This document shows, one piece after another, positions 5,279 through 63,302 of a stretch of DNA of 64,000 bases. Source of the stretch: Nanobdellota archaeon. Lineage in GTDB: Archaea > Nanobdellota > Nanobdellia > Pacearchaeales > GW2011-AR1. Both the position numbers and the translations under genes were made by a program. The notes under the pieces were generated by a model that saw only the letters and a program-made list of their open reading frames with translations, did no database searches and was not told the origin of the DNA. The first letter of the stretch is position 1. Each line of letters starts with the position of its first letter. The stretch is taken from contig JAQICZ010000014.1 of assembly GCA_027858295.1 (NCBI GenBank), positions 1,293-65,292 of the forward strand. Reading direction: 5' to 3'.

Positions 5279-6001
5279 TTAATCCAATTCCACATATAAA
5301 TAATAAGCAGTAGAACCACTAAACCCACTAGCCCCATTTTCAGGAACAATCATTTGAAAATCATAAGCAGTCCCGTCATAACCAACAGCATCCTCTTCTA
5401 AAATAGCAGCATAAACAATATCTGCACTATCATATAACGCAACTTCTTCAAAAGATGAACTTGATTGCCCTGTGCTATTATAAGTATTAACAGTATGCTG
5501 ACAATTTGTAAATTGAGTCCCCGCAACAAAGAAAGGAGAATGAACATTATCATCAAATGTAGCAGTAATATTGTCTGAAATTCCTGAATGACTCATCGCA
5601 GTATTTTCCGTCTCTAAATCAGTACTATCAGCACAAGCAATTGATCCCCAAACCGGAGTAGTTATTTTTCTCGTAGCATAAACACGCCCACTCACAGAAG
5701 CCAAAGTCCAATCATAAATAGTATTTGCTGAAGAATCCTCCAAAGTAAAAGCCCCCACAACATTTCCGACAAAAGCCTTCCACTTATAATTCTGCATATT
5801 AGCCGTTAAATTAAAAGTTGAAATAATCCCACCAGAAACATTAACCATCTGAGCCCCCACTGCTGTCTTCGTCTCATTAGTCCCAAAAACCAATCCATCA
5901 GGACCACTCGGAGCAACCGCCGAAATAAATGCAGCACATAAAATAAACATTAAGCCTGCTACTAAAAGTAAACCCCCTCTCTTCCCATTTGTTCTCCCCA
6001 T
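5279..6001 (-). CDS. Family A secreted protein (paralog of 17337..18128, 18203..18928 and 62582..63268).
   Basis: The start is placed at the ATG at 6001 (MGRTNGKRGGLLLVAGLMFILCAAFISAVA). That gives a Sec-type signal peptide and a length matching the paralogs. The track's 341-aa ORF reads through upstream repeat DNA. The C-terminus is YYLYVELD. Confidence 0.8.
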   Translation of the reverse strand: MGRTNGKRGGLLLVAGLMFILCAAFISAVAPSGPDGLVFGTNETKTAVGAQMVNVSGGIISTFNLTANMQNYKWKAFVGNVVGAFTLEDSSANTIYDWTLASVSGRVYATRKITTPVWGSIACADSTDLETENTAMSHSGISDNITATFDDNVHSPFFVAGTQFTNCQHTVNTYNSTGQSSSSFEEVALYDSADIVYAAILEEDAVGYDGTAYDFQMIVPENGASGFSGSTAYYLYVELD

Positions 6002-16069: not shown

Positions 16070-16117
16070 TTACGCCACCGGAGCTACACGCCCACCAAAC
16101 TCAATATTACCTTCACT
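16070..16117 (-). pseudogene. Remnant of the last 15 codons plus stop of a family B gene.
   Basis: It encodes SEGNIEFGGRVAPVA*, against CEGNIEFGGRVAPSN* at the 3' end of 16328..17335. The core ccaccaaactcaat(a/g)ttaccttcac is nearly identical. An upstream module directly precedes it. Confidence 0.7.
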
Positions 16118-16327: not shown

Positions 16328-17335
16328 TTAATTTGAAGGTGCCACTCGTCCACCAAACTCAATGTTACCTTCACAAGTCCCCGCAAGTCCTTTAGGTACA
16401 TAAATTCTCCAATAAGTTGGTTTAACAGCCTCGTTAAAACCATCATTCTGTCTATAATCTAAATTAAACTCCATAACAGCTGGGTTTAAACTTGAAGTCA
16501 AATTCACATGTGCAGCCTCAAATTCACTTAGACTCAGAATCCCAGGATTAGTATCAGTCAAATTAAACTTTTCATATTCAATGTCAATAAACTTATAAGA
16601 TCCCTTAGAACAATTCATAGCATGACCATCATTAGGACCAGCACCCAAATTTGAATAACCATTCAAAGTCAAGTTTAACTGAGTGTTACCCACATTTGAA
16701 ACATTCACTAATTGCTCATCTGAAACTTCAGTCGAATTAACAATCCCATAATCAATAGAATCTTGTAAACCAATCGCAAGTAATGTGTTTATACTTCCTT
16801 CATCAATTTCCATATTGCTACGAGCCGTAGCATCCTCTATATAAACAGAACAATTCCAATTCCCAGGATTAGCATAATATTGAACCTCGAAAGTACAATT
16901 TGCAATTGCATGCCATTCATCTTCAGACTTACCAAATAAGTCAGTAGTATCATTTTGCTTTATACATGAAGCATTAGTATAATGAGTATTATTGTCATCC
17001 GCACTATCCCAAGTAGCTAAAGAGACATCAAACAAAGTTGCATTAATCAAAACAATATCACTATCATTATTCCAATCCTGAATCAAAGCTTGACATAGAA
17101 CAGTCTTAGTCGCATTCGGAGTCAAAACAACAGGAACTCCATCGTTAACAGAAATATTCAAAATCTCAGGAAAAACAGCCCCCACTTCCAATGAAGTAGA
17201 AACCGTAACATTCTGTGCAGCCCCACTCGAAGCCATTGGAACAATAGCCGCAGCCAAAAGTACAACTAAAGCTATTCCAAAAACAAAATAACTTCCAACA
17301 ATTCGTTTATTTTTTTTATTAACATTTTTTTCCAT
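16328..17335 (-). CDS. Family B secreted protein (paralog of 57248..58438).
   Basis: It has a signal anchor. The shared C-terminus is TYWR(I/V)YVP...G.CEGNI.FG. It starts 1 nt after the stop of the family A gene 17337..18128. Confidence 0.75.
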   Translation of the reverse strand: MEKNVNKKNKRIVGSYFVFGIALVVLLAAAIVPMASSGAAQNVTVSTSLEVGAVFPEILNISVNDGVPVVLTPNATKTVLCQALIQDWNNDSDIVLINATLFDVSLATWDSADDNNTHYTNASCIKQNDTTDLFGKSEDEWHAIANCTFEVQYYANPGNWNCSVYIEDATARSNMEIDEGSINTLLAIGLQDSIDYGIVNSTEVSDEQLVNVSNVGNTQLNLTLNGYSNLGAGPNDGHAMNCSKGSYKFIDIEYEKFNLTDTNPGILSLSEFEAAHVNLTSSLNPAVMEFNLDYRQNDGFNEAVKPTYWRIYVPKGLAGTCEGNIEFGGRVAPSN

Positions 17336-17336
17336 T

Positions 17337-18128
17337 TTAATCTAATTCCACATATAAGTAGTAAGCAGTCGACCCACTAAATCCATTTGCCCCATTTTCA
17401 GGAACAATCATTTGAAAATCATAAGCAGTCCCATCATAACCAGTTGCATCTTCTTCTAACAAACCAGCATAAACCGCATTCCCACCATCCCACAAAGCAA
17501 CTTCCTCAAAAGCAGTAGTAGAAACATCTCCAACATAAGGATTAACAGTATGAGTACATTGATTTGCATTTATCTGTATCCCAGCTGCGAAAAATAAACC
17601 GTGAGTAACATCTGAAAAAGTAGCAGTAATATTGTCGTTAGCACCTGAATGACTCATTGCCGTATTTTCTGTTTCTAAATCGGCAGTTGAAGCACAGGCA
17701 ATTGAACCCCAAGTTGGAGTTGTTAATTTTGTTGTCGCATAAATACGGCCTGTAACAGATGCCAAAGTCCAATCATAAATAGTATTTGCTGAAGAATCAT
17801 CCAAAGTAAAAGAACCAATCACATTTCCGACAAAAGCCTTCCATCTCGGATTCTGCATATTTGCAGTTAAATTGAATGTAGAAATAACTCCCCCAGAAAT
17901 ATTAACTTCAGTTCCCGCTGTAACCGACTTTGTCTCATTAACACCATAAACCAATCCATCAGTACCAGTCGGTGTAACCGCCGTAATAAACATAAGTGAA
18001 GTCACAACCATTAAAGTTGCAACTAATAATAAAATTCCTCTCTTCTCAATCTTGTTTTCTTTATTGTTTTTCATCTCTTCGCTTAGGATTTTATTAAAGC
18101 CTTCCTGTGGCTTTTGGGATTTTTTCAA
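17337..18128 (-). CDS. Family A secreted protein. An alternative start lies at 18074.
   Basis: It is very similar to 5279..6001 along the mature protein and ends in YYLYVELD. Confidence 0.8.
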   Translation of the reverse strand: MKKSQKPQEGFNKILSEEMKNNKENKIEKRGILLLVATLMVVTSLMFITAVTPTGTDGLVYGVNETKSVTAGTEVNISGGVISTFNLTANMQNPRWKAFVGNVIGSFTLDDSSANTIYDWTLASVTGRIYATTKLTTPTWGSIACASTADLETENTAMSHSGANDNITATFSDVTHGLFFAAGIQINANQCTHTVNPYVGDVSTTAFEEVALWDGGNAVYAGLLEEDATGYDGTAYDFQMIVPENGANGFSGSTAYYLYVELD

Positions 18129-18202
18129 GGCCCCACACCTCCAGGTTTACGCCCCACGGCGAAAAAAAGAAAAAAGGTAAAAATAAAAATAAAACTGTAA
18201 CC

Positions 18203-18928
18203 TTATTCTAACTCTACATAAAAGTAGTATTGTCTTGTAGCTGTATCTATGTCATGTCCATCTTCTGGAACTAACATCTGAAAGTCATGATCCTTTTGAT
18301 CAAAACCTATAATACTAGCTTCTTCAATAATTGCTGTCCAAATAACTTCTCCACTTCCACCTTCAAGAATAACTTCTTCATAATCTGCTGCTTCACCTTT
18401 ACCATTGCTGTTAAAGATTCTTGTACTATTACAAGAATTAGCATCAATCTGAATATTATTCACAAAGAACTCACTATGAGTTGTCCAATTAAATGTTTCA
18501 TCCACACCATCAACATCATTACTTACAATGTCATATGACGCTTCTAAAGCCGCATTATCAGTGGCCATATCCCAACACTTAATACCTGTCCAATTGATAG
18601 TATCACCAGTTTCCGAAGCATACACTTCACCTTCTGGGTCAGCCAAACTCCAATTATACATTACGTTATCTGCACCATCTACTAATTGAATAGTACCTGA
18701 AACATTACCGAAGTAACCTTGCCAAGCCTGAGTAGTAGAAAAACCAGTAATTGTTAATTCCGTAACATTCCCTGCAATCGCAGTAGTAGAATCCGCCAAA
18801 TCAATTCCGGCTCTTGTTGAAGAACCTTCAACAATTGTTTCAACACCAAAAGGTTGAACAGAACTAACTGTAGATAAAGCTAACACACAAACTACAAGCA
18901 TTCCTATAAATAACTTATTATATCGCAT
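18203..18928 (-). CDS. Family A secreted protein, divergent paralog.
   Basis: Signal peptide MLVVCVLALSTVSSVQ. It carries AWQGYFGNVSG and HDFQMLVPEDG and ends in YYFYVELE. A GGAGG box lies upstream. Confidence 0.8.
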   Translation of the reverse strand: MRYNKLFIGMLVVCVLALSTVSSVQPFGVETIVEGSSTRAGIDLADSTTAIAGNVTELTITGFSTTQAWQGYFGNVSGTIQLVDGADNVMYNWSLADPEGEVYASETGDTINWTGIKCWDMATDNAALEASYDIVSNDVDGVDETFNWTTHSEFFVNNIQIDANSCNSTRIFNSNGKGEAADYEEVILEGGSGEVIWTAIIEEASIIGFDQKDHDFQMLVPEDGHDIDTATRQYYFYVELE

Positions 18929-19162
18929 CTTTCCTCTTTTTTCATCCTCCTTTCAATACCTTGTATCTTAAGGTTTATTCTCCCCTTGAGAGATATCACA
19001 CTAATCTATACGTACATATCTTTATAAACATTTCCCAGCTTTTGCCCCCCCGAAAAAGTGAAAAAATAGATTTGCCGAAGACAAATTTGTCCCTAAAAAA
19101 GAATTAACAAATATTATACAGCACCATCAACACTATCAGCATACAATATATGGTATGAAACA

Positions 19163-19239
19163 CTAACGGTCAACGGTTTACAGTTTACAGTCTTCAGTAA
19201 TCAGCACTCAAAACTGACAACTGACAACTGACAACTGTA
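19163..19239. repeat. Heptamer array (11 units) between the giant gene's stop and the family A gene.
   Basis: ctaacgg tcaacgg tttacag tttacag tcttcag taatcag cactcaa aactgac aactgac aactgac aactgta. Confidence 0.85.
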
Positions 19240-19259
19240 AAATTGCAAAGCAATTTTAC
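19237..19259 (-). terminator. Perfect 10-bp hairpin overlapping the stop codon of the 4849-aa gene.
   Basis: GTAAAATTGC aaa GCAATTTTAC. The downstream minus strand includes AGTTTTG within the heptamers. Confidence 0.4.
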
Positions 19260-22200
19260 TGCAGCTCAACATAAAACACCGCTTCACTTCCAGCCCCACT
19301 ATATTCTCTTAACTTTGCCGGCACACGAAGTTCATAATCATAAGTACCATAATTACCAACAGCACCTTTGTTAATTTTAGAAACAAAAATCAAATCCTCT
19401 GCCTCTGCTATATCAAATTCACCATTAGTGTCATCAGATGAATCCCACAAAATACCAGTCTTAAAATTATTATTAGACGTAGACTGAGTCACAGGAACCG
19501 CCGGAAGGGTTCTACCAAAAACAGAAAAGCTATCCACCTCATTTGGAACAAAAGCTGTCAAATACAAGGCAGAGATAGAATCAGGAAAATCCACCATAGA
19601 AAGCAAACTATCAACTTCTAAAAAATCATCAACAGAATAAGCACTTACATTATTATAACCAAATGCCAAAACACTATCCCAGGAAACAGAACTATCCTTA
19701 TCACTCATAAACACGCTTGCACTAGCAAACCAATTAATCACAGAATTATTTTCTAAATCAGCCAACTCAAGTTCACTTGCCGACTCAATGTTACCATAAA
19801 AGAACTGCCAGGCCCCCACAGAAACATTCTCATTACCTAAATTATTATTTTCATCTCCCTCGGTAAAAGAATCTGCCCCGTCAACAACAACCCACAGCTC
19901 ATTCAAACCAATCACAGTATCATAACTATAATTAACATACAATACATCCGACACATTCAAATCAATAATCCGCTCCCCAATTTTAAAACCCGTAGCAGGA
20001 TATCCAGAATAGAATTCAACCAAAACCCCACTCGCATCAGCTATCCCAATATTGGAGACAGTCGCGTTAATCAAAATAGATTTTCCTTCCACCGGAGTTG
20101 AATCATTTAATGTAACAGCAGAAACAAAAAAGTCCGGATAACCATAACTAAAATTATAAATTTCACTAGTATTTACATTCCCAGTCAAATCAACACACTC
20201 AACTGACCAATTATGATTTCCTACAGAAATTCCATTTACATTTGATTGCCCAATACTATCATTACCTGCCCAAATATTATTTCTAACTTTTATATCATCA
20301 ACCAAGAGATCACACTGTATTGCAGTTGCCAAATTATCCGTTGGTCTCCACTGAAACTGCAATGGATCAATATTAGCATCTACCTTTGCATCAGCAACAG
20401 GGGCAACTAAACTTGCAAAAGGCGGAGTCACATCACGAGTAAAAATTGAATTTTCTACCCAAGCAACATTCGAATCCACATCTGAACAGGAAATGTTCCA
20501 ATAATGATTCCCCTCACTTATTCCGTTAACCTCGAACATATTTTCAACATTATTTTCAATCACCACATCTGCCCCCAAAGAACTACCGTCAAAAAACATT
20601 TCACACTGAGTTAATCCAGAACCATCTTTCGGGATATATGTGAAATTTACAGATGAATTTGTATCAAATGTATTATTCGTGGGTGAAACTATATCGATCA
20701 CAGGAGGAGCAGTCATTGTAAAACTCTTTTCTAAGGTCTCAAAAGAATTACCAGCCTCATCACCACATCTAATACTCCAACTATAATCTCCATCATGCAC
20801 ATCAACAAAACTCTCTGAAACCGTATTATTACTTGCCAAAACTCCAGATTCATTAAATCCATTAATTAAAATTTCACAATTTCCAACAGAATCTAAATTA
20901 TCAATATAAGTAAAATTAAATTTAAGATTATTCCAATCAAAAGTTTCACCACCAGTTGGATGATGGGTGATAATGTTAGGAACATGAGAATCAATACTCA
21001 GAAAAGAAGTTTCAGAATACCCAACCAAATTTAAATTATTATAACATTCAATACTCCAATTATGATTATTCTCGGTCAAAGTTTCTGTAAAAGAATTAGA
21101 TACCCAATTCTCAATATTTGTATCTACCGAAACAAAAACAGAATCCACATAAAGCGAACAATTAGCAAGACCACTGTTGTCTCCAACAGTGTAAGAAAAT
21201 GTCACATCTGTATCATTCGTCCAAACATTATTTTCAGGAGAATCAATTGCAACTTGAGGCGCTGCAAAATTTTCAAATTCATATTCTAAACTCGAAACAT
21301 AATTTTCTCCCAAGTCAACACAACTAGCACCCCAAGTATGATTATTAGAATTTAATGAATGAACAAAAGAAACGTTAACTCCTTCACTTGCCAAAATACT
21401 TTCATTAACAATTACATCATCAATAGTTAAATTACAATATGCTTCAGATGAATATAAATCATCAAACCAAAAAGTAAAATTAACTTCACCGCTATAAACT
21501 TCACTATTATTTAATGGATATGCTAAAGTTAAATTAGGCGCAGTTAAATCTTTATAAAAAAATCTATCTTCACTAATTGATTCCAATAAATAAACATCTG
21601 TACAATTTACAGCATAATCAAAATATCCTTGTGAAAGTGAAGTAATGTCAAAAATATTTTGTGAATCAGTCACAATTGAACTGATCGTATCAAAAACTAC
21701 GCCTCCAATTATAAGCGAACAAGAGGTAATATTGCTATTATCATTTGGTGTATATTCAAGAGAATTAGTCAAATAAGAATTATTTGCATCATTCAAATTA
21801 ATAGTTGGTGACTCAGCAATAGTGATTACTTGCTGTTCACTAAATTCAACATTATTATCCATATCAATACATGAAACATTCCAATATTTTGGACCATCAC
21901 CTAAAGAATTAACAAGATAATTAATTAATGTATTATTTGGAGCAGTAATTCCAGAATACGAAACATCCCCAACATAAAGAGTACAATCCATAGAATCATC
22001 TGTATTATCTATAACAGTAAAATTAAAATTAACTGAAGAACTAGATGAAGTAAAAGAATCAATTGGTAAATTTAAAGTAATAACGGGACCAACGGTATCC
22101 ATATCACGAATAGTAATACTCCTGTCTCCAGTTGTACCAATTAAATCAGAAGAATCTCTCGCCAAAACAGAATAATCATAATCCCCATAAGTCAAATTAT

Positions 22201-25200
22201 TAAATTCGATATTAAAATAATATTTATCCAAATCTTTTTTATAAAAATTTGTTCTATTCTTAATTATTAATTCAGATGAATTCAAAATCTTATCATAAAT
22301 TTTAACCTCATCTATATAACCATCAAAAAAGTAAGAAGGAGTTATTCCATTATATCCCATTCCTAAATTAAATTTCAAATCACTTGGTAAAGTCACCGTA
22401 GTTGAAAAAGTTCGGACAACCTCACCATCATAGATAATTGATATATTTTTACCTTCATAAAAAGCAAAACCAATTTGATGCCAATCCCCATCAACCAAAA
22501 CTGAATTTGAAATAGTTCTTCCATAAGAATCTGCCACACTCAAAAAATTAGAACCAGCAGCATGACCAATAGATAAAAGGGTATTTCCCGCGGAGTCATC
22601 AATAGACAAAATGCTTTCCTCATTGACAATAGAGCTTGTTTTAACCCAAGAAAGAATTGTTATATTCTTTGAAACAAAATTATAGGGCGCTCCAATTTCT
22701 ATATAATCCGAATCTCCTCTAAAAAATCTATAAGCACCAAGACCATCATGTCCTTCTCCACTAATCCAACTAGCACCGTTATTGTCACCAAGCGCCCCAC
22801 TTACATAATCATAAATATTATTACTATTCTCCGAAAAAGTCGCCAAATTATCAAGACCAATAAGTCCAATCAAAGAACCATCATAAATAAAATTATTAGT
22901 TCCATTAAAATCTAAAACTACTTCTTCTAAATTTGCTTCAGTTAAATCAACATCAATAATTAATCCATCTGGCAAATGATCCGAAGAATCTGCTGGAGTT
23001 AAACTTCCAAAAACAAGAGATGGGTTAATCGTATCAATTGCAAAATTGTAAATTGTCAAATTTTCATTATTAGAAGAATCACGACAAGAAAATGCAATTA
23101 TGTGATTTCCCTCAGAAACAGAATTTAATGTCATATCAAAATGAGTATCATTAACACGATTCATAGAAACAGAAGATGCAGAATCTAAAACATATGAACA
23201 ACTATTTCCATATTCGTCTAAGTAAACATCAATATTAAAATTTCCTGTTGTGTAAGCACCTTCATTTTCAATTCCAGTGATTACTAATTGGGGTGCAACA
23301 ACATCTCCAAATTTAGTAGAAACCGTTCTAGTTATTTGACGAACACCCCCATAATAATTTTCAGCATAAGTAGTGAACATATAATCATCATTAATGAGAG
23401 AAGTTTCATTTACAAAAAAAGTTCTCTGACCAGTATACAATTCTTTAGCTTCCTCATCGCTAATTACTCTATCATAAACTACAAACTTATCAAATGACCC
23501 ATTAAAATATTCAGGTGTTCCACCTGTATCTTCAATACGACCAAAGGAATAAAAATTATTAGTAACGTTTCCAATATAAGAAATAGCTTGTTGATTTAAT
23601 TCCCCATTAATATAAATCTTTGAGGAACCATTATTTGCATAACGACTAATTACAATATGCTTCCAAGTCCCATCATTAATTGGGACTGTTGATTTTACTG
23701 CCGCAGAATTCGCAACAGTATATCCAATATGCCCAGTTGCATCAAGCCAACCAATAAAAATATCATTTCCTCCTCCTGCTTCTTCAATACCAGTCACTCC
23801 AGGAGCCATCCACATAGTGTCATCCCCTACTTGTGTTGTCTTTACCCAAAAAGATAATGAAGAAGTTGAACCCAATACAGGGGTTAAAGAAACGTCAGTT
23901 TGAATGTAGTCATTAACTCCATCAAAACTTAACGCAAGCCCCTCATATCCAGTTGTATAATTAGCACCATAAATTGTTCCATCAATTCCCCCAACAAAAG
24001 AAGAAACATGAGTATCATTCTCTCCCCTAAATTCTTCACGATCTAAATTATATCCAAGCATGATTAATGAATTGAATAAAGTCTGATTTACACCATTAAA
24101 ATCTAAAATAACTGTGTTCAAATCGGTTTCATTAACACTAATATTAATTGGAATAAAATCTTGTGGAACTTCAATGCCATTAACAGGTGTAGGATTAATA
24201 TAAGATGCTCGCGGAACTTTAATGACATCTACCGTAGGCATTAAAAAACCAAAAGCATTTCCATAATCATATCTAGCATAACATCTAAGAATTGCATTTC
24301 CAGGTGAAATAGCCATTACAGGTATATCTTCAGACACAGAACCATAATTAATTGTTCCCAAATCCCGCCACTCATATCCGTCACCAAAAATCAAATGCTC
24401 ATTATTATTATGAACATTGACCCACACAGAATCATTCAAATATTGCAAAGTCAAATCCACATTTACACATTCCCCAATAGAACAATTAACTTGACAAGTA
24501 AAATTATCTTCTTCCGCTTCCGTCATAACTTTGTCATTAACAGGATAAAGAAAATCAGTATATAATTGCCCAATCAATGAAAAATCCGAAAACTCAACGA
24601 AAGAAGCTTTTAATCCATCCCAACGATGAATTAATGTTACATTTCCAACATTATCATTATATCCAGAAATCACAAGTTTTATTTTATCAGAATTTTTTAA
24701 AATGAATTCATTAGGAACAATACAATTTGAAGTCCATACTCCAGAAGTCGCACTAACACGCAATCCTCCAGTATAATCATTTCCAGATTGACAAATTAAA
24801 TTATCACCACTTGAATTTTCAAAATATAATTTCCATGTTAAATAAACTGCATTCACAGTATCAACCTCTGTATATGAACTGAAACTTACAGTAGCTCCAG
24901 TTGGAATTCTCATACCATTATTTCCTAAATATGTTGTCATCGGAATAACAAAATCAGTAACAGAAGAACCAGATAAATTAATGGATAAATAATTTTCAAT
25001 TAAATCTCGCTTATTCTTTAAATTTATTTGGGCAACATTTCCAACAAAATTTGAAGTCGAAGATTCATACAGCCGATTATTCCAATCAATACTATACTCT
25101 CCAGTAACATTAATTTGCCTTGATGAACTAATCACTTCACGATTAGAATAATCAAGACAACTAACAAACCAATCATGAATACCATTAGAAACAAAAGTTT

Positions 25201-28200
25201 GAATATTTTCAACTGTATCATTTAAAATATTATAATTTGCTCCAGAGATTTCTGAATCCAAGAATAAAGAACATTCTTTAATTCCATAATTATCATCTGC
25301 TATAAAACCAAAATCAATTGTATTTGAAGTTGTATTATAATGATCTATTGGAGCATCCAAAATAATTCCTGGATTTGTTAAATCAATATTAAACTCAACT
25401 AAATCACTTACATACTCGACTGAAGAAGGATCAACACAATAAAATACTGCAGTATGATTTCCTTCTGCTAAACCATAAACACTATTAACAAATGACGTCG
25501 GTGTGACTAATGTCATTGAAACATTTGCGGCAAAATCTAATGAATATTTACAACTAACGGAAGCAAGTTTTGTATTTACTTTGAAATCCACATCACTAGA
25601 ATTATAAGATTCATTTTGTGGAGTATCTAAAATCACAAACGAGTTTATCGGGACTCCCATTTCAATAACTTGCCAGAAAGCATCATTGGTTTGATCACCA
25701 GTTCCCTTATAAAATTCTAAATTAGTGTCACTAGTTAAATAATTTGTTAATGCAGAATTTGCAAAAGTTGTTCCACCACCAGTTGAATCATGTGATTCCA
25801 GACTGAAAGCTTTAGACGAATTCACAGAAGAAATTGGTTGATTGATTGCACTAGATCCAGAAATACTCCTAGTTCCATTTTGAACACCGATTTCTAAAGA
25901 CTCAACAACAAACCAAGACACAGTAGAGTCACCAGTAGTTCCAGTCCGATTAAAATCAATTTTATTTGAAAATAAAGTAGAACGAACATTGAGCTCATCA
26001 AGTCCAGTAGCACCAGAATCAAAACTATTTGAAGTGATTAAAAATGCAGTTGAAGTGTCAACGCTCTTACTCAAAGAAACAGTTCCAGAACTTCCGGAAA
26101 AAGTAGTTGCACCTACCTGAACTTTAGAACCACTCCATTCTATTGCCTGCCAAGCAATTTCACCAAAAGCCCCAACCTGACTTCTCTCGAAATTTAAATA
26201 AGAGGTATTACTAAATTTAGAATTAAAAAATCCATAAACATTTTCAGCAGTATCTGTTGAGGATAATTTGTTTGATGAAATAATAAAACTTTTACTCAAA
26301 TTAAAATTCTCTGTAAATGCAGTCACCGCAGAATCACTTGCTAAAAATGGAGAAATTCCACGACGCACAAAAATATTTGAAGATTCTATAACCTGCCAAT
26401 CAATATTAACAACTCCTGAAGTAGAATAGCGACTAAAAGTAATATTGTTTTTATTCAAAACTCCTTCAATTTGAATCTGTGCAGGAGTACTAGTTGACGA
26501 ACGAATTGAAAATAATAAAAAAGCATTTGCTAAATAATCAGTAGTTAAAGGAATGACTGTTTCACTCTCCCCGTTGGCAATTATTGTTCTTCCTTTTACT
26601 ACTTCTGGAGAAAAAGTAGTAACAATATTAAAATTACTAGAATTAATTCCTGCACGACCATTCTCTCCTAAACAAGAAAAATTAACATAATTAGCTCCAT
26701 TACGAACATAATCATCTGATGCAGAATAAAAAGTTGTATTTATTTGAGTCATCAAAACAGGCGGACCAGAATTTAAAGAATAAGTACAATTTTCAATTGT
26801 CACGTTGCTCTGTACTGCAAAAACAACTGGACTAGAATTTATTTGCCCAAAAGGAGAAACAACTTCTATTACTGGAGCAGATAATTTTTTCACCGTCACA
26901 AATCGATTATTTCTTGCATAAGACATTTCCCCTATAATATTTTCACATCGAATATTCCAATCAAAACTAACATTAGACAAATTTGTTAAAGTGAATTGTA
27001 CAGTAGCACTTTTTCCACTTACAGATTTAGTTTCACCTAATTGTAAAGAACCACTAGCACTATGAACCAAATTACATTCTTTCAAATTCGCTTTTGCTTC
27101 AACATTTGCAACAAAAGTTAAATTTGCTGGATCCAAATCATATTCTGCATAATTATTCTCTGGACTAACAAGACTTATTTGAATTGCATCTTTTCTCGTT
27201 GGCCAAGTAACAACTTCACAATTAATGTTATGAGACGGATCAGTATTTCCCGTTCTTCCTCTTTCAAATTGAATAGTAGTATTATCATAATAAAATGCAG
27301 GGTATTCTCCTCTAGACGAAGCTGTCCCTTCCCCATTAAGGAAAGAATAAGAACAAAATAAACTACTTGCATTCAAATCAATTTGCGATGGCAAAGTTGA
27401 ATTAAATATTGTATTATCTCCAATTTCTAAATCTGTTGGTGTATGATGTATAGCAGAAGAATAAACTCCTTCTTCAAATTCCACAACATAAATTTCACAT
27501 TCTTGAGGAGCAGTTCCGCCTGTACCCAGTTCTGAAGTTAAACAAGTAACTGTTGATGAATCTTTAAATTTACATTGTATATTTACATCTTCAATTCCAT
27601 ACTCTTCAGAACGACAAGAATGAATTAAAAATGAATTATTCAAGTTAACAGATTTTCCAATATCAAAATCAACCCCTGTATCCAAATGCACTTCTCCAGT
27701 ACTAATATTAGTAACTCTCGAGTTATCATTAAAACACACAACATCCGCCCGCACTTCCCGATTTCCACAAGCCCTTGTATTCGCCTGCACAGATAAAATA
27801 TTTTGAGATTCAAATTTACCCATAAAAAGTCCTTCTCCTCGACAAGAAGCATCTGAACTTGAAGACATCACATTATTTCTAACTGAAACAAAGCATTTAT
27901 CTTTGTAATTGCTTGGCATAAAAGCACAAGCAGAAGCCAAACTAATATTTAATTTATCAATTCCATTACCAACAATTCCCTCGACGTGACATGTATCAAT
28001 ATATTCCGTTTCCAAAAGACTATAAGACCCCACCATCGAATCAGTAGTCCCAATACGTTCAATAGTTAATTGATTTGAATAACCTCCAGTAATATTTGAA
28101 AAATAAAACATTCCATCTGCATTATTTGGAGCAGTGTTTGTTGATGCAGATATCTGACTATCCACAATCATAAATGCATGATTAACATAATAATTATTCT

Positions 28201-31200
28201 CTAAAGTTATATTTGTTTGAGTTCCAGAAACATATCCGAAACCAGATTCAGCTTGAACTTGCGCCCTCAAAGAAAAATCAGAAATAATAAAATCAGCAAT
28301 AGCAATATTAATTTTATTTGTTTCATCCAAAACAACATCTAATGCATAATTTACAGGATTATAAATAACAAAAAATTCCCAAATAGAATATAATGGACCA
28401 GTTGCATTAACAGCCCACTTAGAATTACAATAATCCCCTCCTTTCATACCAGATAAACAAGGCAAATTTAATGGGCTCAAAGGATTCTGCATTATTGTAT
28501 AAAATGGAACTCCAGAATTCATTGGTACTATTCCCTTGCTATTAACATCTGCCCACCTTTCAAAATTTCCAATTGAAATTAAATTTGCTTGATTTTCAAT
28601 TAATTGATATGTCTGATTAATCCAGTCTGCACTTCGTGAAATTCCAGAGATTGTTACTTCATCAATTGTCCCCACATATCCTTGTCCCCCATCAGTCATA
28701 TCTCCAATTGCTAACCCATCAATTCCATCATAATCTGCAATCCCGCCAGTATGTGCAACAGTACTAAACAAAACCCCATCCACATAATACATCGCATGAG
28801 TCCCATTATAAGTACCAGTCAATAAATACCATGTTCCATCCGCCATAGTATATGTTGCAGAACTTGTTGCCGTTGTTGTACTTGCAACATGCCACATTAA
28901 ATCAGTATCGCTTCCAGCATTTAATTCAAATCCATAAGCTCCCCACGGAGAATTATCGTTAGGACCATACCATAATGGTTTTGCATAATCTACTTGAGCC
29001 CCATTTCTTTTAAGCCAAAGTGAAACCGTTATTGCACTAGTAGGTTCCAAATCTATTGTTCGAGGTACTTCAATTACATCTGCTCCATCAAACTCTTGTG
29101 CTAGTCCAATCTTTCCAGTCGTTTCAACTGCTCCACTATTTACTGCATCATTTGCATTAATAGTTGAATCATATTTTGTTCCAGTTGTTCCATTCAAATG
29201 CCAAACTCCCAAATGATTTGAATCCCAAACTCTCGAAACATCCTCGCCAGAAACAGCCAAAGAATTATTGTAATACATACAAATTGAATTAACTCCTGCT
29301 GAAAACAAAGGCGCCCTAACCCAAACATCGGCATAAAGCGTATCATAATTTTCAATTTCAAAATCCATTTCTACTCCACCTTCAGAAGAACAACTTCCAT
29401 TAACAAACCTCAAATCCGCCAAATCTGTTTGCATTTCAGATTCTACTGGAAGTTTCAAATGAACTGGAAAATCAATTAGTGATGATACTCCACCATTAGT
29501 AATATTAATTTCTTTTCTTAAAACCCAAGAAGAATTCCACCAAATAAGTTCAGGGTCCAGCGTTGCATTGATGTCACCACATTCACCTCCGGAACAAGTT
29601 ACTCTTGATGTTATATTAAAAAAATCATTTTGTAAAACACTCGCACTCGTTGACGGAGAAACAAAATATGAACTTAATGTTCCCCAAGGAATAAACCAAT
29701 TAGAAGATCCATAATCAACATGAGAACCATTATCATAACATTCAATATTCAATGCAAAATCTCCAGAATCCTCAACTACCCAATTAAGATTATCACGAAT
29801 CCAATAATCACTCACATTTGACGTAGAATTCACATTAAAAATTGTGCTACTATCTGGAATATTTAATAATTCAAAATTTACTCCTACAACACTTCCCTTA
29901 TTACTTGTGCAATTTGCTCTAACTCTAGTAATAACCTCACCATAATTAATATCAGAACAATTTTTCCAAATACTATTCTCTTCACAGTCTATTGAATTTA
30001 TCACAGAATTTCCAAAACTTGTTGTTGTTGAAATAGTCAAATTTATCGAAGGAGTTTGAGTTGTATTAACATAAGAACTATAATTTATTGAATCATAAAT
30101 TGTAAAAAATTCCCAAGAAGAATCCAATCCACCAGTTGCATTAACAATCCAACTATTCACACAAGAATCACCATCTTTCATATCTGCCAAACAAGCAGTA
30201 TCTATGTAATTCACAGGATTTTGACTTGTAGTATAAAATGGAACACCTGTATTCATTGGGATTATTCCTTTGAAATTTTCACTAGCTTCTCCATATAATA
30301 CCAAATTATTTTGATTTTGAATTAATTGATATGATTCATTAATCCAGTCTGCGCTTCGAGGCGTATCTGAAAATCTCAATTCATCAACTTGCCCATCCAA
30401 ATGAGTTTCTTCTACAGCAGTTGATCTATAACCAAATCCTGACCGCAAAGGTTCTCCCGAAATAACATTCAATGCCTGTCCAGAACAAGTTGTACTTGTA
30501 GCAACACTTTGACCATCAATATATGCCGTAGCTGTAGTCCCATCAAAAGTCAAAGCATAATGATACCACTCACCCAAATTCACAGCACCACCTGCAAAAT
30601 ATCCTTCTGTTCCACCACAAGTTACCCCAAAAGTTGGAGCTCCAGCACTTACAGCAATTCTAAAAAGATAGTTTGCCCCCCAACCCAATTGTGACCCTTT
30701 CCATAAAATCGGATTATGGTCTGGCGTCGTCCATGTGTCAGCCTTTGCCCAACCCTCTGCTGTAAAAACTTGTTTTTGTAAATCAGTAGAATCAGGTACT
30801 TCAATTCTTTGTTGATTATTTCCTCCAAGGTCATAACCAGAAGCAACTTTCGCAGATGCTAAATAAGTAGGAGTAGTTCCTAGTGGTGCTCCATTATTAC
30901 CATTTCCCGTTGAATCTAATAAAAAATCTCCAGTCCCGCTAGCTTCTTCTAAATGCTGAACTGTCATATAATTGGAGTTCCAAACTCCAGCTGCATTCCC
31001 CCGATTAACTGCATTCGAGTTATCATAATACATACAAATTGAATTTATACCAGAATAAAAATTTGGTACTCTTAACCAAACATTTGCAAAAGTAGAATTA
31101 TAACTTTCAATCTCAAAATCCACCTCAGAACCACCACCCGTTTGACACGCGCCATCCACAAATCTTAAATCATCCAAATTTGAACCCATTTGTGATTCAA

Positions 31201-35409: not shown

Positions 35410-37374
35410 TTATATTAATTTACCTACCCAACTCAAAACCCTAACCCTAAACAAATTCCACTCGATAAACCTATCCCAAATATTCAATTTAATCTTCTCA
35501 CCATAAATCACAATATTTCTATAAACCTCTTCAGAATTAAAACTATATTTTAAGTCATCACCCTCAATACTAATAGCCATACCAGTCAATAGACTACGCT
35601 TCCCATTTGTATCAGTTCCATAAAATTTCAAATCCTTAACCCCACTATTCTCTAGCTCCTTTTTATTAGCCTTATACTCAAAAGCAAACCTCCCAGAATT
35701 AGAACCCAAATTATTTTCAAATGAATATCCATCAACGAATGTCATCTTCCTATCATACCAATTATTCTTCACATCAAACCCAAAAATATCAAAAGCTCCA
35801 CGACTAGAAAAATTCTTAGAATAAAGAGCACCAGTAAAATTATTCATTTTGCTAATCAAAGGATGCTTATCTGTAACTTTAGATTTATTCTTTGGCAAAT
35901 AATAATATCCGCCTCCGCTACCGCCACTACTCTTTCCAATAGGCTTAACATAATCATATACCGAGATATTCTCTTCATCAATTTTCTCACCTCCAAGTGA
36001 ACTCATAAAAGAAAAATCACCCGCGACAGATGGAACTAAAGAATAACTAAACTCAAGATTATCACCAACAACATCCCAAACAATCACATTATAAGACGAA
36101 CTAGAAATTTCAACTACCCCTCCATCACTCACAGAGTTTATCTCAAATTCGACAGGGATATATTCCCTAAATTCAACAGAAACATTCCTTGAGATATTCC
36201 CCCTTAGTGATATAAAAATCCCTTCTTTATTTTTAATCTTCTTTCCCATATCCCTTGAAAAATTAACCGATTCAACTAAATACATGGATATATCAGTGCT
36301 AAAATTACAAACAGACCAAAAATCATTCACCTTCAAATCAATGCTAGCAACTGATAACTGAGTACTTAGAACTGTATCTCCAGCTCCCAACTCCCAGCTC
36401 CCAGCTCCGAAGGAACAACTGTTTAGTTTAGTCTTTGGCTTAATCAAATAACTATAATTAAAATCTGTTGAACCATTTTCTTTCCACTCAATTGAATAAT
36501 AACCGTCTTCTTCATAAACTCGTCCGCCATTACTAACATTAAACACCTCATATTCATTTGCAACAAAATCAACAACAGGGACATTTTTGTCAGACCTATT
36601 ACCATAAAAATCTACAGTCAACTGTTCACCATCAACTGTTAACTGTTTTTCATAATCTACCCACTCTCCATTCGCAAAATAATCCTGTGGAATACTACCC
36701 TTCTTCTCCCTAATTCCAGTATGACAATCTGTAACAATCTCCAATTCATTCAAGCCAAAACTTCCGTTAAGAAAATCATCATAATCACATCCATCCCAAC
36801 AGAACTGTTTACTCGTACTATTTTGAACAATAAAAGAATCACACCCATCATAAACATTTAACTGCAAATTAACCTTTGACAACTTTGAGACATACAATTC
36901 CTGGTTTGGTTTACCCACCTGAACAACTTCACGAAATTCCATTTTATAAAAAATATCACAATCAGAACAACTGTAATCTTTATTATTTACAGCAGCCAAA
37001 TTCATATCCACAGGCCCACCCGCAAAACCATTCTCAAAATCCAAAATCTCTGCACGAACAATCGCATCGTCTTTAAATTTTGGCCTATCATTCAATGGAA
37101 CATTTACAAAAGAATATTTATTCTCATCAGGACTAACTAAAACTTCTCGATAACTTCCCACATCATTCATATCATAAACAAAAACATTCTGCCAAGCAGG
37201 ACTAACTGTTTCTCTGCTCGAAGACACAACAACCCCACCAATAACTTGAGCAGAGACTAACCCAATTAACATTACAAACAATACACTGTAAACCGTAAAT
37301 CTTAAACCATAAACAGACTTTCTTTTTCTCCCCATTAATCTTTCTCTCATCTTCGCTTTATTTTCTTTTCTCAT
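35410..37374 (-). CDS. Secreted or membrane-anchored beta-rich protein, 654 aa, function unknown.
   Basis: N-terminal anchor FTVYSVLFVMLIGLVSAQV and an SSGGSGGGYYY linker. It lies immediately downstream of the 6119-aa gene on the same strand. Confidence 0.7.
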   Translation of the reverse strand: MRKENKAKMRERLMGRKRKSVYGLRFTVYSVLFVMLIGLVSAQVIGGVVVSSSRETVSPAWQNVFVYDMNDVGSYREVLVSPDENKYSFVNVPLNDRPKFKDDAIVRAEILDFENGFAGGPVDMNLAAVNNKDYSCSDCDIFYKMEFREVVQVGKPNQELYVSKLSKVNLQLNVYDGCDSFIVQNSTSKQFCWDGCDYDDFLNGSFGLNELEIVTDCHTGIREKKGSIPQDYFANGEWVDYEKQLTVDGEQLTVDFYGNRSDKNVPVVDFVANEYEVFNVSNGGRVYEEDGYYSIEWKENGSTDFNYSYLIKPKTKLNSCSFGAGSWELGAGDTVLSTQLSVASIDLKVNDFWSVCNFSTDISMYLVESVNFSRDMGKKIKNKEGIFISLRGNISRNVSVEFREYIPVEFEINSVSDGGVVEISSSSYNVIVWDVVGDNLEFSYSLVPSVAGDFSFMSSLGGEKIDEENISVYDYVKPIGKSSGGSGGGYYYLPKNKSKVTDKHPLISKMNNFTGALYSKNFSSRGAFDIFGFDVKNNWYDRKMTFVDGYSFENNLGSNSGRFAFEYKANKKELENSGVKDLKFYGTDTNGKRSLLTGMAISIEGDDLKYSFNSEEVYRNIVIYGEKIKLNIWDRFIEWNLFRVRVLSWVGKLI

Positions 37375-37526
37375 TTTTTATTCTCTGCCTTTGCCATCTC
37401 TGCGCCACCCCTGCCACGTTTTGTTTTTATTTTTAGGCTAGTTTGGATTTTAAAAATTTCAATAAATCGTCTGATTATCGAAATTTTTAACAATTCAAAA
37501 TAGTCAAAAAGAAAGACAAAACCAAA

Positions 37527-40500
37527 TCATTGCTGTAGCCATGCATAATCCTCAGTCATGCTAACCTCAAACCCTTCCTCCATATTTACTTCAAAATTCC
37601 GACCTATACACGGTCCAAAAGGGTAACAAATCTGCCCTAGACTATCCTGAGACGCACTATCCCATCCACTAATTGCATCTTCAAAATCAATAGACGCTCT
37701 CAATTCACTTGCGCTAGTAATTACTGTAGAAGCAGTCATCCCAATCCAATTTTTATTAAATCTTGTTCCACTTTCATCATAAACCAAATCAACCCATACC
37801 GGACTATTGACAATCCCAACACCAGACCAGTTAATACTCACAGGACCAGAAGTATTCATAATAACCTCATACCCTTCACCAGCTTTCAAATCAAAATTAC
37901 AAGCTGTATCAGTACAACTAAAACTCTCCGGACAACTAAACTCGTTACAGCTAACTTGCTTCTGAGTTGCTGTGTCTAGTCTAGAAATAGAAGTAATCCC
38001 AGTAATCTTACCCAAACTTTCATTAGCATTAGAGATACTAGTAAAATTTGTAGGGAACGATATCCAATTCCGATTCGTAATGCTCCCTACCGGGCTAACT
38101 ACATTATGGTTCAGTGTATAAACATGTGCTCCATATGTTTCAGTACTAATATTAGCACTTGAAGGGTTCCAAGCTTCAACCTTATAGAATCTTCTTCTCT
38201 GGCCTACAAATGTTGTATCTGTATAATTTGTATTCGCAGTCTCAGCAATCATGCTCAAAGCCCCCATATCGCTTCCAGCATAAATACGATAAGTCAATGC
38301 GTCAACACTAGCATTCCAATCAATAAAAATATCTCCAGTCCCGTTATTTGCACTTTGGGTTATATTCGTAAATGCTGGCCTTGTCGGAGGTAAGAATGCT
38401 CCAAATGTATTATTTGCCGTCATACCCAAATTTCCATAAATATCATAACATTCAACAGTCCAATTATAAAATCCGCCAACTCCAACATTTACACTAGCAA
38501 AATCAACTTCATAATAAACAGTTTGATTCAAATGCCAACCGCCATTCCACGAACCATAAAGCGAGCAATTACTCATAGAACTTTCATCTGCAAAACTATA
38601 ACCAAATGACGGGATAAAATAAGTTGAAAAATTATAACTATTCGTAGGACTCGTTAGCTCAACAGCAGGAGCATTCAAATCACGCATCTCAACTGCAAAC
38701 CACGTACTCATTCCAGCCCCCGCATTTGCCCCTTTCTGCAAAGCCAAAGTATTATTATTCTTTATCTTCTGTGTCAAAGATGAAGTCGAATAATCCGTAG
38801 CAGAACCATCATTATAATGAGAATTTAAATTAAATGCACGCGAACTATTAATCAGATCACTACCCAACGAAACATCTTGCTCTGCAGTAGAAACTAAATG
38901 CGCATAATCTCCACTCTGAACATCAAATAAATCAGATTCCAAAACAAAATAATTAATACTAACATTTCCTGCCGTCCCAACCCTCTCAAAGCTAATATTG
39001 TTATTAGTTTCAAATCCTCCACGAATCATAGAACTATCAACAACATTTGAGCCATTAATGTTATTTGAAAATACCAAGAAGGACTTCGTTAAATCAACAC
39101 CATTAATAATTGCATTATTCACACTATTTCCAACACCAAGTTCCAGACTTCCAGATTGCACGGAGATGTCTGCCCAATCAACAACTTGGAAAGAAAGTTC
39201 TCCCGAGGACCCATTAACCCCTCTACTGAACCGAATAGTAGTATCATCCAAAAATTCTGCAGAAAACATTCCATCAATGTTCTGGGCAGATCGCGGAGAA
39301 TTAACTCGAGAATTTACAATAATAAAACTACTTGATAAATTCACAGCATTAATTGAGGTATCGATATAACTCTCCGAACCGAAATCCAATTCTCCACGCT
39401 GCACACTAATATTAGGACCGACTACTAAATTCCACTCAACAAAAACAGGCTCTCCACTAATATAATTTTCAAAAGCAATTGTATTCACATCCAAAAATTT
39501 AGAAAGAACATTCAATGTATCAGCTCCCTTATCTCCTCCACGAGCCGTATGTAAAATAAACGACTTGCTCATATCAATCTGATCAACTGCTTCTTCCTGA
39601 TAACCGTCAACATATGATGTTCCACTAATTACTCTATATGTTGGAGTAAAAATCAAACTTGAATTAACAAAAAAAGTTGCACTTGTATTATTCAGATATC
39701 CCATAGTATCGTTAGCATATAATTCAAGCGTATGAGATGAAAAATCATCCACATTAATCGAAGTATCGAAACAATTTGGAAGAGTAATATTCACTTCGCC
39801 ATCAAGATTATACCAACACTTATCTAAATGAACATCAATGGCATCATAACTAATTCTAATCCCATTTGCGTAACTATAATTTGTACTTTGTGGGCTCTCC
39901 AGAATAAGCCTCGGGTTCGTAACATCAATCAAACTAATATTCCTAGTTACAACAGAACGAACATTCCCCGCAAAATCATAAGCACTCACATTATATTGAT
40001 AAGTCTTATTTTCACTTGATGCTGTAAAATTTATAGAAGTCACAGGAGTATTATAAACAGTTTCATTTACTAAACCGTTTCCATCATAAAGCCCATACCT
40101 TATTTCTTTAAAATTATTTTCTAAGATTGCAGTCTCTACAAAAATCCAATCACGCTCAACCACATATCCATCAGCTTCAGTATTAACAGTATAACTCAGA
40201 ACTGGCAAAGTAGTATCTAAATTAATTCTTCTCGTATTCAAGCTCACACCATGACCCGCCTTATCATAAACAGTTACATTATAATAATAACTTCCATCAA
40301 CCAGCCCAGTCCAATTAATCTCTCGTGTTCCATTTGAGAATGTCTGACTAGTAATAATTGATGTATCATTACTTAAAATAAAAGTCATATTCGCGAAATT
40401 CGTATCCACAACTGTTGTGTTAACATAAACCCAACTCTCACTTTTATTCGCAGAATCAACTTCTACCCCACCAGCATAATTAACAACCGGCAACAATGTA

Positions 40501-55886: not shown

Positions 55887-55977
55887 CAGATTTTGCTGCC
55901 AACTTTCCCATCACCTCTGAAAACTAGAATAAGATAAATCAGAGTGCCTTATCTTAATATTTCAGCGCTTTTTCCGT

Positions 55978-57171
55978 TTATATAGATTTATATCCTCCAT
56001 CTTTATCGTCGTTAAAACCCTTATTACTACTCTGATTCAATGACACATTTTTGTTGTACTCTTTTATTGATTTTATATCAAAAGCACTATCCATTGAGTC
56101 CGAAAAGAACTCCTCTTCCGTCTTTGATTTTGCAAGCAACATCATACCCCAAATTACAAAAACAGCACCAAAGATTATAGTACTTATCACCAGATTGTCT
56201 GAAAGCCCCAAAGCTCCCAAATCTCTTGATATCGCAGATAAATTAAACCCAATCATCAAAAGACCAATCTCCTTCAAGAACTTTCCACCCAAAAACAGTA
56301 ATACTACCGCAAGTAAAAGTGGTAGCAAAATTCCCCCTAGTGTTACCATCGGAGTAACCTTCCCATCGGCACATAAAATCTCTGTATGAAATAATCCCCC
56401 CTCATACACAATCTTCTGATAATCACAATCATAAAACTTAGAGGTTGAAAGATGTCCTAATTCATGAATAGCGACGGTTCCAATAAAAACAAAATTTGCA
56501 AGAATTATAATAAAAGCCAAATGACTAAACAATTTAACCATATATGATTTTCCTACACTCATTTTAACATCTACTGGTATAGAATAAACTTTCAAATCAC
56601 AAATAAGCAAATATAAAAAAAAGAAAAAAAGAATCACTGACGCAATTGTAAGCATATAAAAGTTCCCGAAACCCGCCATAAAAAGAACTACGAGCAACAA
56701 TGAAACAGCAGAATAAACAATCCCAAATAATCCAACTCTACGATAAACATCTGCTCTAATTGAAAATTCTGTAAACAAAATAATACTAAACAAAAAAGAA
56801 TCAACAATAAACAACAGTACAGAAGTATGCGCTACTAAAAAAAGCAAAGGAATTGAAATTAAATACAATGCCAACAAATAATACAACTTCTTATTTTTTG
56901 AGAACATGTAAGACACCTTAAATAAAACACCATTCTGTATCAATAAAAGGATTGCAAACATCACTGAATAATCTGCAAAGGAATATTTCAAATAATCAAA
57001 AAACCAAAAAAAAGAAAGCACCGAGACAACCAAATAACAAAAAGCCGCAACCGCCAGATATCTAACTGCCCTCAAGGCAGAATTTTCATTATAATGAACA
57101 AATAATTTTACCAGCAAGAAAATAAAAATAGCTAAGCTAATAATCCCACCAATCAAAAACATAAAATTCAT
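55978..57171 (-). CDS. Polytopic membrane protein with HExxH in a hydrophobic segment. Possible S2P/M50-like intramembrane metalloprotease.
   Basis: It has about 10 hydrophobic segments. It carries GTVAIHELGHL and a later FNLSAISRDLG, which loosely resembles the M50 motif FNLLP..PLDGG. Confidence 0.45.
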   Translation of the reverse strand: MNFMFLIGGIISLAIFIFLLVKLFVHYNENSALRAVRYLAVAAFCYLVVSVLSFFWFFDYLKYSFADYSVMFAILLLIQNGVLFKVSYMFSKNKKLYYLLALYLISIPLLFLVAHTSVLLFIVDSFLFSIILFTEFSIRADVYRRVGLFGIVYSAVSLLLVVLFMAGFGNFYMLTIASVILFFFFLYLLICDLKVYSIPVDVKMSVGKSYMVKLFSHLAFIIILANFVFIGTVAIHELGHLSTSKFYDCDYQKIVYEGGLFHTEILCADGKVTPMVTLGGILLPLLLAVVLLFLGGKFLKEIGLLMIGFNLSAISRDLGALGLSDNLVISTIIFGAVFVIWGMMLLAKSKTEEEFFSDSMDSAFDIKSIKEYNKNVSLNQSSNKGFNDDKDGGYKSI

Positions 57172-57247
57172 GTTAATGCCACCTTTACTTTGTATTTCTG
57201 TCTATTTGCCTTATCTAAAGACCAATAACTAATAACTAATAATTTAT

Positions 57248-60829: not shown

Positions 60830-60925
60830 TTTAGTCTTTATCCCCTTTACAATCGAGCCCTACTTGCCCAAATAATCTGGGGGAGTTATCGACTTTTTCA
60901 CCTAATTGTCTGCCCATACTTAATT

Positions 60926-62122: not shown

Positions 62123-62139
62123 TATTATTTCCATCCAGA

Positions 62140-62235: not shown

Positions 62236-62242
62236 CCAAGCT

Positions 62243-62534: not shown

Positions 62535-62581
62535 GTAATCATAAAAAAAAGAAAAAAGTTAAACTAAAAATAAAAATAACC

Positions 62582-63268: not shown

Positions 63269-63302
63269 TTTCCCCCAGATTCCCCCTTTTTAACTCTATG
63301 TT

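Follow-up and report, generated by a model that had tools for sequence, protein, structure and literature searches.

In chaperone-usher pili (FimH with FimG, FimF and FimA; PapG), the subunit domain occurs both as a free protein and as the C-terminus of an adhesin, the C-terminal strand is conserved, export proceeds through Sec, the subunits carry an N-terminal extension, and paralogous subunits are encoded in one locus. The Saci_0406/Saci_0405 threads of Sulfolobus acidocaldarius (PMC9715654), the bundling pili/TasA group and the cannulae (PMC12518558) are made of N-glycosylated subunits that are exported by Sec and signal peptidase I (SPI) and consist of an N-terminal tail and a C-terminal globular head, with two co-transcribed paralogous subunit genes and no type IV machinery in the locus. 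ATPases of the VirD4 type, EssC/EccC (type VII) and CedB have an N-terminal transmembrane (TM) hairpin followed by a cytoplasmic P-loop and are encoded beside genes for small exported proteins. Finally, SLH, LysM and cohesin-dockerin modules are each common to many unrelated surface proteins, which they bring to one common site. Here we describe two protein families, A and B, encoded in a 64,000-nucleotide stretch (the window) of contig JAQICZ010000014.1 from a Nanobdellota archaeon, whose genes recall each of these systems in part. Module A, a domain of about 190 residues without a recognisable fold relative, is found in free proteins, at the end of giant or mid-size surface proteins and on the outer loop of a membrane ATPase. 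We see an even chance that A and B co-assemble stoichiometrically and thereby mount giant adhesins on an ATPase-based platform.

The comparison with the described systems also brings out clear differences. Unlike the subunits of chaperone-usher pili, A has no fold similarity to a known subunit, the A/B system lacks an usher and a PapD-like chaperone, archaea have no outer membrane, and it is a membrane FtsK/HerA ATPase that carries module A here. In contrast to the threads, bundling pili and cannulae, A gives no significant Foldseek match in the PDB; moreover, the threads have no giant adhesin or ATPase that shares the subunit domain, whereas here two types of free A and an Ig (immunoglobulin)-like B stand in a fixed order. 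The A-bearing ATPase differs from VirD4, EssC and CedB in that its inter-TM loop is about 630 residues long and opens with an A-like domain. Its neighbours carry Sec-type signals and have no obvious need of an ATPase for export, and no other component of a type IV secretion system, a type VII secretion system or Ced was seen. The SLH, LysM and cohesin-dockerin modules have no sequence or fold relation to A, which also occurs as free paralogs in a fixed gene order. Of the features that define the FimH-type and VirD4/EssC-type systems, only the P-loop domain is present.

In distribution, A and B coincide exactly with module 98 of Castelle et al. 2021, as that paper describes it, a set of 51 mostly unannotated and often membrane or extracellular families common to Woesearchaeota and Pacearchaeota (PMC8204110). 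However, the passages of the paper that deal with this module list its families in aggregate and describe no architecture, locus or mechanism. Our literature search returned no paper on the A and B families, on the loci described below or on an ATPase with an A-bearing ectodomain.

Family A is represented in the window by four open reading frames (ORFs) on the minus strand. Subtype A-I is encoded at 18203..18928 (241 aa), the first free A gene of a giant1-A-A-B unit (triad position T1), and is defined by its ORF, the alignment and an AlphaFold2 (AF2) model. Subtype A-II is encoded at 17337..18128, where the ORF comprises 263 aa; since its orthologues align from the ATG at 18074 (residue 19), this codon is probably the true start and the protein would then have 245 aa. 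The ORF at 5279..6001 is an extra copy of A-II, 70% identical to the former, which stands alone and is preceded by dispersed-repeat modules (ORF, alignment and tree), and the fourth copy, at 62582..63268 (228 aa), lies directly downstream of a helix-turn-helix (HTH) regulator. Along their whole length the four are 30-70% identical, and 45 columns of their alignment are invariant, among them those of W.G(Y/F)(F/V)GNV.G, of one Cys pair, of DF(Q/E)M.V.E.G and of YY.(Y/F)VEL(D/E) at the end. The ORFs and the alignment thus confirm the copies and motifs of the original prediction, which had been made from the letters of the window. A search of the whole 1.35-Mb assembly gave a fifth copy, G000:C29:71194-71901, on the same contig about 6 kb past the window, and none beyond these five on contig C29. 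Family A is a real family and more than a chance resemblance, because it has 893 relatives in 90% clusters and 1281 clusters at 50% identity.

Family B has a short form of 335 aa at 16328..17335 and a long form of 410 aa at 57248..58480 (both on the minus strand), the latter with orthologues of 383-414 aa. The two are 41% identical and share the end TYWR.YVP...G.CEGNI.FG, and 112 relatives are found in the databases. The remnant that had been counted as a further member is real, in the form of a stump of 12 codons of the B 3' end at 16079..16114 (minus strand), which encodes EGNIEFGGRVAP, identical in 12/12 residues to the C-terminus of family B (tblastn), and adjoins a dispersed repeat element. 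The named relatives of A and B are from metagenome-assembled genomes of Woesearchaeota, Pacearchaeota and Nanoarchaeota. Elsewhere in the genome, a weak third B-like match was seen at G000:C53:8322-8630 (E 7.5e-4, profile positions 121-219) within an open frame of 311 aa, which may encode a distant single-domain relative of B. The 318-aa gene that follows B in one related locus (L009) has no likeness to family B.

Neither A nor B matches a described family. The six A and B proteins gave no match near any cut-off in Pfam or NCBIfam at E values up to 1, the precomputed Pfam entries of all listed A and B homologues are empty, and no PDB sequence was matched by either family, even with profiles of 4, 51 and 53 sequences. 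For the neighbouring proteins, too, Pfam and NCBIfam gave little that was informative. The AF2 model of A (pLDDT 84, pTM 0.70) comprises a signal helix, about 30 low-confidence residues and a β-rich domain with two helices. With this one model, Foldseek found nothing significant in PDB (best E 0.25, TM-score ≤0.22) or BFVD; no pilin, TasA, thread or cannula chain of PDB was significant, and no likeness to any lectin or carbohydrate-binding module (CBM) appeared. The model of B (pLDDT 91.6), on the other hand, has a signal helix and two β-sandwich domains and gave 26 PDB matches at E ≤1e-3 (best about 1e-5, probability up to 1.0), among them the tandem-Ig adhesins and pilins AgI/II C123, RbmA, CfaE, FimH and CsuE. 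Since the TM-scores are only 0.2-0.36, the match is one of fold class and not of family, and as modelled B consists of tandem Ig-like β-sandwiches. The earlier failure to name a domain for either family therefore holds at the level of sequence, and for A also at the level of fold, whereas B acquires a fold class; a clear membership in an unrelated enzyme family was seen for neither. A stand-alone PapD-like chaperone of about 220 aa was also considered for B and is ruled out, because in relatives the B domain also closes large proteins (594, 632, 918 and 2214 aa) as their C-terminal module; the top fold matches of B are adhesins, not chaperones.

Module A likewise exceeds the small stand-alone proteins as which both families had been seen. 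All 270 collected members end with the eight residues Y-Y-F-[YWF]-V-E-L-[EQSG], so that the domain ends at a free C-terminus, and the same A end closes proteins of 443-1724 aa with Beta_helix/NosD or Laminin_G_3 domains upstream. Giant1 (4849 aa, 19256..33805, minus strand), with a signal anchor and with Laminin_G_3 repeats and CARDB by Pfam, also terminates in a diverged A-like domain (residues 4664-4849, 19259..19816, minus strand), of which the last residues read ...AVFYVELQ. This end was matched to A by hhalign (93%, E 3.4e-7), by hmmsearch (domain E 6e-6) and by profile-profile comparison with 30 orthologues (96.2%, E 2.6e-9). The third context is an ATPase of 1162 aa encoded on contig C50. 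A basic N-tail leads into TM1 (57-75), and TM2 (711-729), which precedes the HerA/FtsK P-loop, is set apart from TM1 by an ectodomain of about 630 residues. This ectodomain opens with 190 A-like residues: a profile of 13 orthologues aligns with the A profile at 96.6% and E 6e-10, and single orthologues also score with the A profile. The protein is an FtsK/HerA-superfamily P-loop ATPase with the Walker A motif GATGMGKS. At residues 763-859, DUF87 reaches 44 bits against a cut-off of 23.2 and HerA_C 27.9 bits against one of 22, and FtsK_SpoIIIE is likewise among the Pfam matches above cut-off. Judged by these profile comparisons, the A domains of the three contexts are homologous.

Two side observations concern these A-bearing proteins. 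Among 23 mid-size A-ended proteins, 11 have (V/F).V.HFS.YS.SEN as a motif some 100-130 residues ahead of A (in relatives P0243, P0252, P0254, P0263, P0279, P0292, P0295, P0340, P0354, P0364 and others), and the same proteins show recurrent sub-threshold matches to the Nup98 S59 autopeptidase of up to 27.5 bits (cut-off 28.4). The cleavage site of that autopeptidase is HFS, and these surface proteins may cut themselves upstream of A; no protein of the window has the motif. The A-bearing ATPase itself belongs to a second surface-type cluster on C50 (L021, 1277..17477), together with a 266-aa SpoIIM-like membrane protein, a 615-aa CARDB protein, an 829-aa HerA-like ATPase and a 669-aa Ig-like protein. 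In a related locus (L013), the same SpoIIM and ATPase genes adjoin the genes of long-form B and of two neighbours that are described below, p437 and p725.

To describe the gene order, 80 loci around A genes were annotated with profiles of A, B and p397, an eight-TM neighbour, and with the other proteins of the window. Locus 1, found in 31 loci, reads giant, A-I, A-II and B (short), and corresponds to 33805..16328 of the window. In 27 of the 31, the upstream ORF ends in a giant1-type A-like domain (E 1e-57 to 1e-85), and 2 of the 4 loci without the giant have no upstream sequence. The clustering with giant genes that had been noticed in the window is thus stronger than was seen at the time, as a giant with an A-like end directly precedes the A-A-B triad. 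Locus 2, in about 30 loci, reads ATPase (1040-1270 aa), A, winged HTH (wHTH), A, optionally B, optionally p437, p725 and B (long), then p397 and a giant; in 21 of these loci the gene immediately before A is that of the ATPase. The window portion 63920..37527 represents locus 2 without the ATPase, and the copy at 62582..63268 is its A gene behind the regulator. One fused A, two free A and one B is the pattern of both loci, and in one relative (L014) both are fused in one operon. In this genome, a DnaK/GrpE/DnaJ block parts the fifth A copy from the regulator: bacterial-type DnaK-GrpE, a DnaJ-domain protein and an iron-type alcohol dehydrogenase are encoded between the fifth A and the HTH-A pair (2727..7777 of L015, C29:63000-75518). 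In relatives, A, HTH and A are adjacent with no DnaK block between them.

The second free A gene of locus 1 is distinct from the others. In a tree of 120 free A proteins, all 33 second-position genes form one clade with support 1.0, which includes 17337..18128 and 5279..6001, and A-II always precedes B; A-II is an ancient separate clade. Four orthologous positional classes of free A had been expected, of which only A-II proved to be a clean clade. The junction of A-II and B in the window reads GAATTAGAT TAA A ATG GAA, and an in-frame ATG exactly 1 nt past the A stop (TAA-N-ATG) is present in 17 of 39 adjacent A-to-B pairs, the gap being ≤18 nt in 28 of the 39. The 1-nt gap is thus a conserved feature that indicates one transcript. 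It does not by itself imply co-translation, as had been read from it, and the two genes are probably coupled by termination-reinitiation.

Both families have the features of exported proteins. Each A and B protein has one N-terminal hydrophobic helix and no further TM segment, which agrees with the small secreted paralogs of the original prediction, except that neither family is confined to stand-alone proteins and both also serve as C-terminal modules of larger ones. Sequons are dense in family A (median 3.1 per 100 aa), and of the 270 members 96% retain the sequon AGN-V-T and 91% the sequon GN-V-S; A has conserved Cys pairs, and the genome encodes an STT3/AglB-like gene. Because of the single N-terminal helix, the conserved Cys, the kept sequons and the STT3/AglB-like gene, we suppose that A and B are exported and glycosylated. 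Behind the signal helix of A come roughly 30 residues, some of them conserved (P.G), that adopt no structure in the model of the monomer, as would fit a segment that folds only against a partner.

Archaeal type IV pilins were considered for A and rejected on the leader motif and on the lack of linked machinery. A class III signal was taken as a short charged leader ending in [KR][GA] and cut ahead of a retained hydrophobic helix. The A-I leaders MRYNK-LFIG and MKKIY-LFAV have no G/A at -1, the conserved V.A-V.P.G of A follows the hydrophobic stretch, which is the arrangement of SPI substrates, and A-II alone, with KRG ahead of the helix, is ambiguous in this respect. In the fusions, the A domain sits far from any N-terminus. 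The genome encodes ATPases of the T2SSE type on C48 and C55 but none on contigs C29 and C50, and none was found among the annotations of the related loci.

Co-occurrence was counted over 301 genomes of Nanobdellota, uncorrected for phylogeny. A is present in 83 of these genomes (58/225 genera) with 1-9 copies each, strong B matches in 41, and the ATPase ectodomain, in single copy, in 61. A accompanies strong B in 34 of 41 cases against 11.3 expected, and the ATPase in 40 of 43 against 11.9 expected, so that the co-occurrence is strong for both partners. The A/B system is accessory and patchy, because A is absent from the 13 other genomes of the same GTDB family, all of 0.5-0.9 Mb.

Three features point to a stoichiometric extracellular assembly: a module common to several proteins, a gene order that is fixed, and the recurrence of one fused A, two free A and one B in both loci. 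In the reading we prefer, a multi-protein surface apparatus specific to Nanobdellota (Woese- and Pacearchaeota) would contain A and B as structural modules that are exported and N-glycosylated. It would seat giant adhesin-like proteins on a membrane platform with the ATPase at its base, or link them to it. A unit would be built from a single fused A, the two free subtypes A-I and A-II, and a single B. From the sharing of the domain and from the gene order, we infer that A domains of the ATPase, of the free subunits and of the giant would bind one another. B and A-II would be translated from a common message, probably with translational coupling, and B would act as a stoichiometric partner or connector of A-II. 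Read in this way, the A/B set points to an undescribed cell-surface attachment machine, for which we infer both the role in host attachment and the stoichiometry from sequence.

Several observations weigh against this reading. The shared module could equally bind a common ligand and not itself. The positional classes of A-I (after the giant, the ATPase or the HTH gene) intermix in the tree and form no separate clades, which weakens the idea of fixed, non-interchangeable positions. Some genomes have 6-9 tandem copies of A, which fit a polymer or antigenic variation as well as a fixed complex of one plus two. In this genome, the ATPase is encoded on the other contig, C50, and not beside any A gene. 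Finally, the co-occurrence is subject to the uncorrected counting stated above.

The first of these points leads to the alternative that A is a lectin- or CBM-like anchor, tethering all A-bearing and free A proteins to one glycan without any A-A contacts. The glycan would belong to the archaeon's own envelope or to the host wall, by the logic of SLH, LysM and cell-wall-binding modules. Such an anchor would suit the very different passengers that end in A, namely Beta_helix/NosD (polysaccharide-lyase-like), Laminin_G_3 and the giants, and also the variable copy number of A. Four aromatic residues, W69, Y91, W93 and W113, are invariant in family A, and aromatic residues are often found in sugar-binding sites. 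However, an anchor leaves unexplained why fused A, two distinct free A and B keep a fixed order in two loci, why an ancient A-II clade is joined to B by a 1-nt junction, and why a free C-terminus is strictly needed, and the Foldseek search described above revealed no lectin or CBM likeness. We regard this alternative as unlikely.

Slightly less probable, in our view, is a pilus assembled by donor-strand exchange, in which free A would be the major subunit and would polymerise by inserting its N-terminal extension into its neighbour. By way of its A domain, the giant would serve as tip adhesin, with the ATPase ectodomain as the base and B as a minor subunit or cap; chaperone-usher pili, Sulfolobus threads, bundling pili and cannulae follow such a logic. 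As modelled, A has the expected parts: a Sec-type signal, an unstructured extension (about 30 residues) that includes a conserved stretch resembling a strand, and a globular β-rich domain. The invariant C-terminal strand of A has a counterpart in chaperone-usher pilins, where this strand is conserved, the combination of adhesin and subunit domain resembles FimH, and the tandem A arrays of some genomes would suit a polymer. The threads offer a further parallel, as they likewise use Sec, SPI and N-glycans (PMC9715654). On the other hand, the A model is without a Foldseek match to a pilin, TasA, thread or cannula subunit (TM-score ≤0.22), and free A is represented in the conserved loci by exactly two genes, which differ in type, and not by a single major subunit.

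That A and B form a surface-layer (S-layer) or sheath lattice, into which A-tagged large proteins are inserted, seems very unlikely. In its favour, the proteins occur widely in the lineage, have no anchor and are predicted to be secreted and to carry glycans, and a few weak Foldseek matches of B are to S-layer chains (ranks 40-43). Nevertheless, the presence of A in so few of the genomes and its absence from the 13 of the same family would be odd for a main envelope protein, and A is small (about 210 aa when mature) and encoded in accessory-looking loci with a regulator. Cassettes of effectors or toxins, with free A proteins secreted to act on the host and the A end of the giant deliverable as in polymorphic toxins, can be dismissed as hardly credible: a giant with a C-terminal module is indeed followed by stand-alone copies, and the organisms are predicted symbionts (PMC8204110), but the C-terminal module of the giants is conserved in all 27 of the loci scored above and not polymorphic, each stand-alone copy begins with a start and a signal peptide of its own and is not followed by a small immunity-like gene, and module A is also found on the outer loop of a membrane ATPase.

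The preferred reading of a stoichiometric surface assembly can be extended to a new archaeal machine for contact between cells, composed of A and B, the two-TM FtsK/HerA ATPase, the M50-like protease candidate p397 and the giants, although we consider this extension distinctly improbable at present. A ring of ATPase ectodomains would nucleate the A/B structure, which would be tipped by the giant adhesins, and the motor would transfer macromolecules, be they DNA, nucleotides or proteins, between host and DPANN cell. Woese- and Pacearchaeota, which rank with the most abundant archaea that have not been cultured, are thought to live attached to hosts, and to our knowledge no attachment or exchange structure has been described for them. 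If the extension were true, it would provide the long-sought molecular basis of DPANN episymbiosis in these lineages. The gene set is of use apart from this. Two families of hypothetical proteins become a defined and testable set of two loci with a shared domain, a motor ATPase and giant adhesin-like proteins; structural biology obtains concrete complexes to model, to express and to seek by cryo-electron tomography; and annotators gain two new domain families, of which A alone has more than 1200 clusters, as a marker for a lineage-specific surface system.

The remaining genes of locus 2 in the window are all on the minus strand. The wHTH regulator (205 aa, 63303..63920) stands between the two A genes, with an orthologue in the same place in 32 of the 80 loci, and its orthologue in L014 gives weak MarR_2/HTH_5 matches. 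The protein p437 (60926..62239) has a signal peptide, a β-rich ectodomain with a weak CARDB match and a C-terminal TM anchor, and its orthologues are syntenic in L013, L014 and 10 more loci. The likewise syntenic p725 (58652..60829) has a signal peptide, an ectodomain with a weak fn3 match, a TM segment at 589-607 and a helical cytoplasmic tail.

The eight-TM protein p397 (55978..57171) lies between long-form B (or A) and the giant in 22 of the 80 loci. It contains HExxH and a downstream Asp, and H236, E237, H240 and D317 (GFNL..S..D) are invariant in 20 homologues. Three of these 20 give weak matches to Peptidase_M50/M50B (E 0.0015-0.003); the copy of the window is recognised by no Pfam model and has no PDB sequence match. 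From its conserved residues, p397 is probably a divergent M50-like intramembrane metalloprotease.

Giant2 (6119 aa, 37527..55886), the giant of locus 2, has orthologues behind a p397-like gene in L014 and in many other loci. It is followed by the gene of a secreted protein of 654 aa, p654 (37527..35410, minus strand), whose orthologue follows the giant2 orthologue in L013 with an overlap of 16 nt. This is a second conserved pair of a giant and its partner, unrelated to A/B. Profile searches found no A or B domain in giant2, p437, p725 or p654.

The repeat element beside the B stump (16160-16300) recurs upstream of the extra A-II copy (6010-6300) and is dispersed genome-wide. Its 18-mer core, AACCCTTGGAAAAGTTTT, occurs 68 times in the 1.35-Mb genome at ≤1 mismatch, against 0 for a reversed control, which rules out an upstream module specific to A/B. 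The element looks like a MITE-like (miniature inverted-repeat transposable element) sequence or a common regulatory box, and it probably breaks the assembly, because many copies lie within 300 bp of contig ends. A separate short array is present just after the stop of giant1 (19190-19250, minus strand), where three tandem heptamers CAGTTGT are followed by related CTGTAAA/CCGTTGA units.

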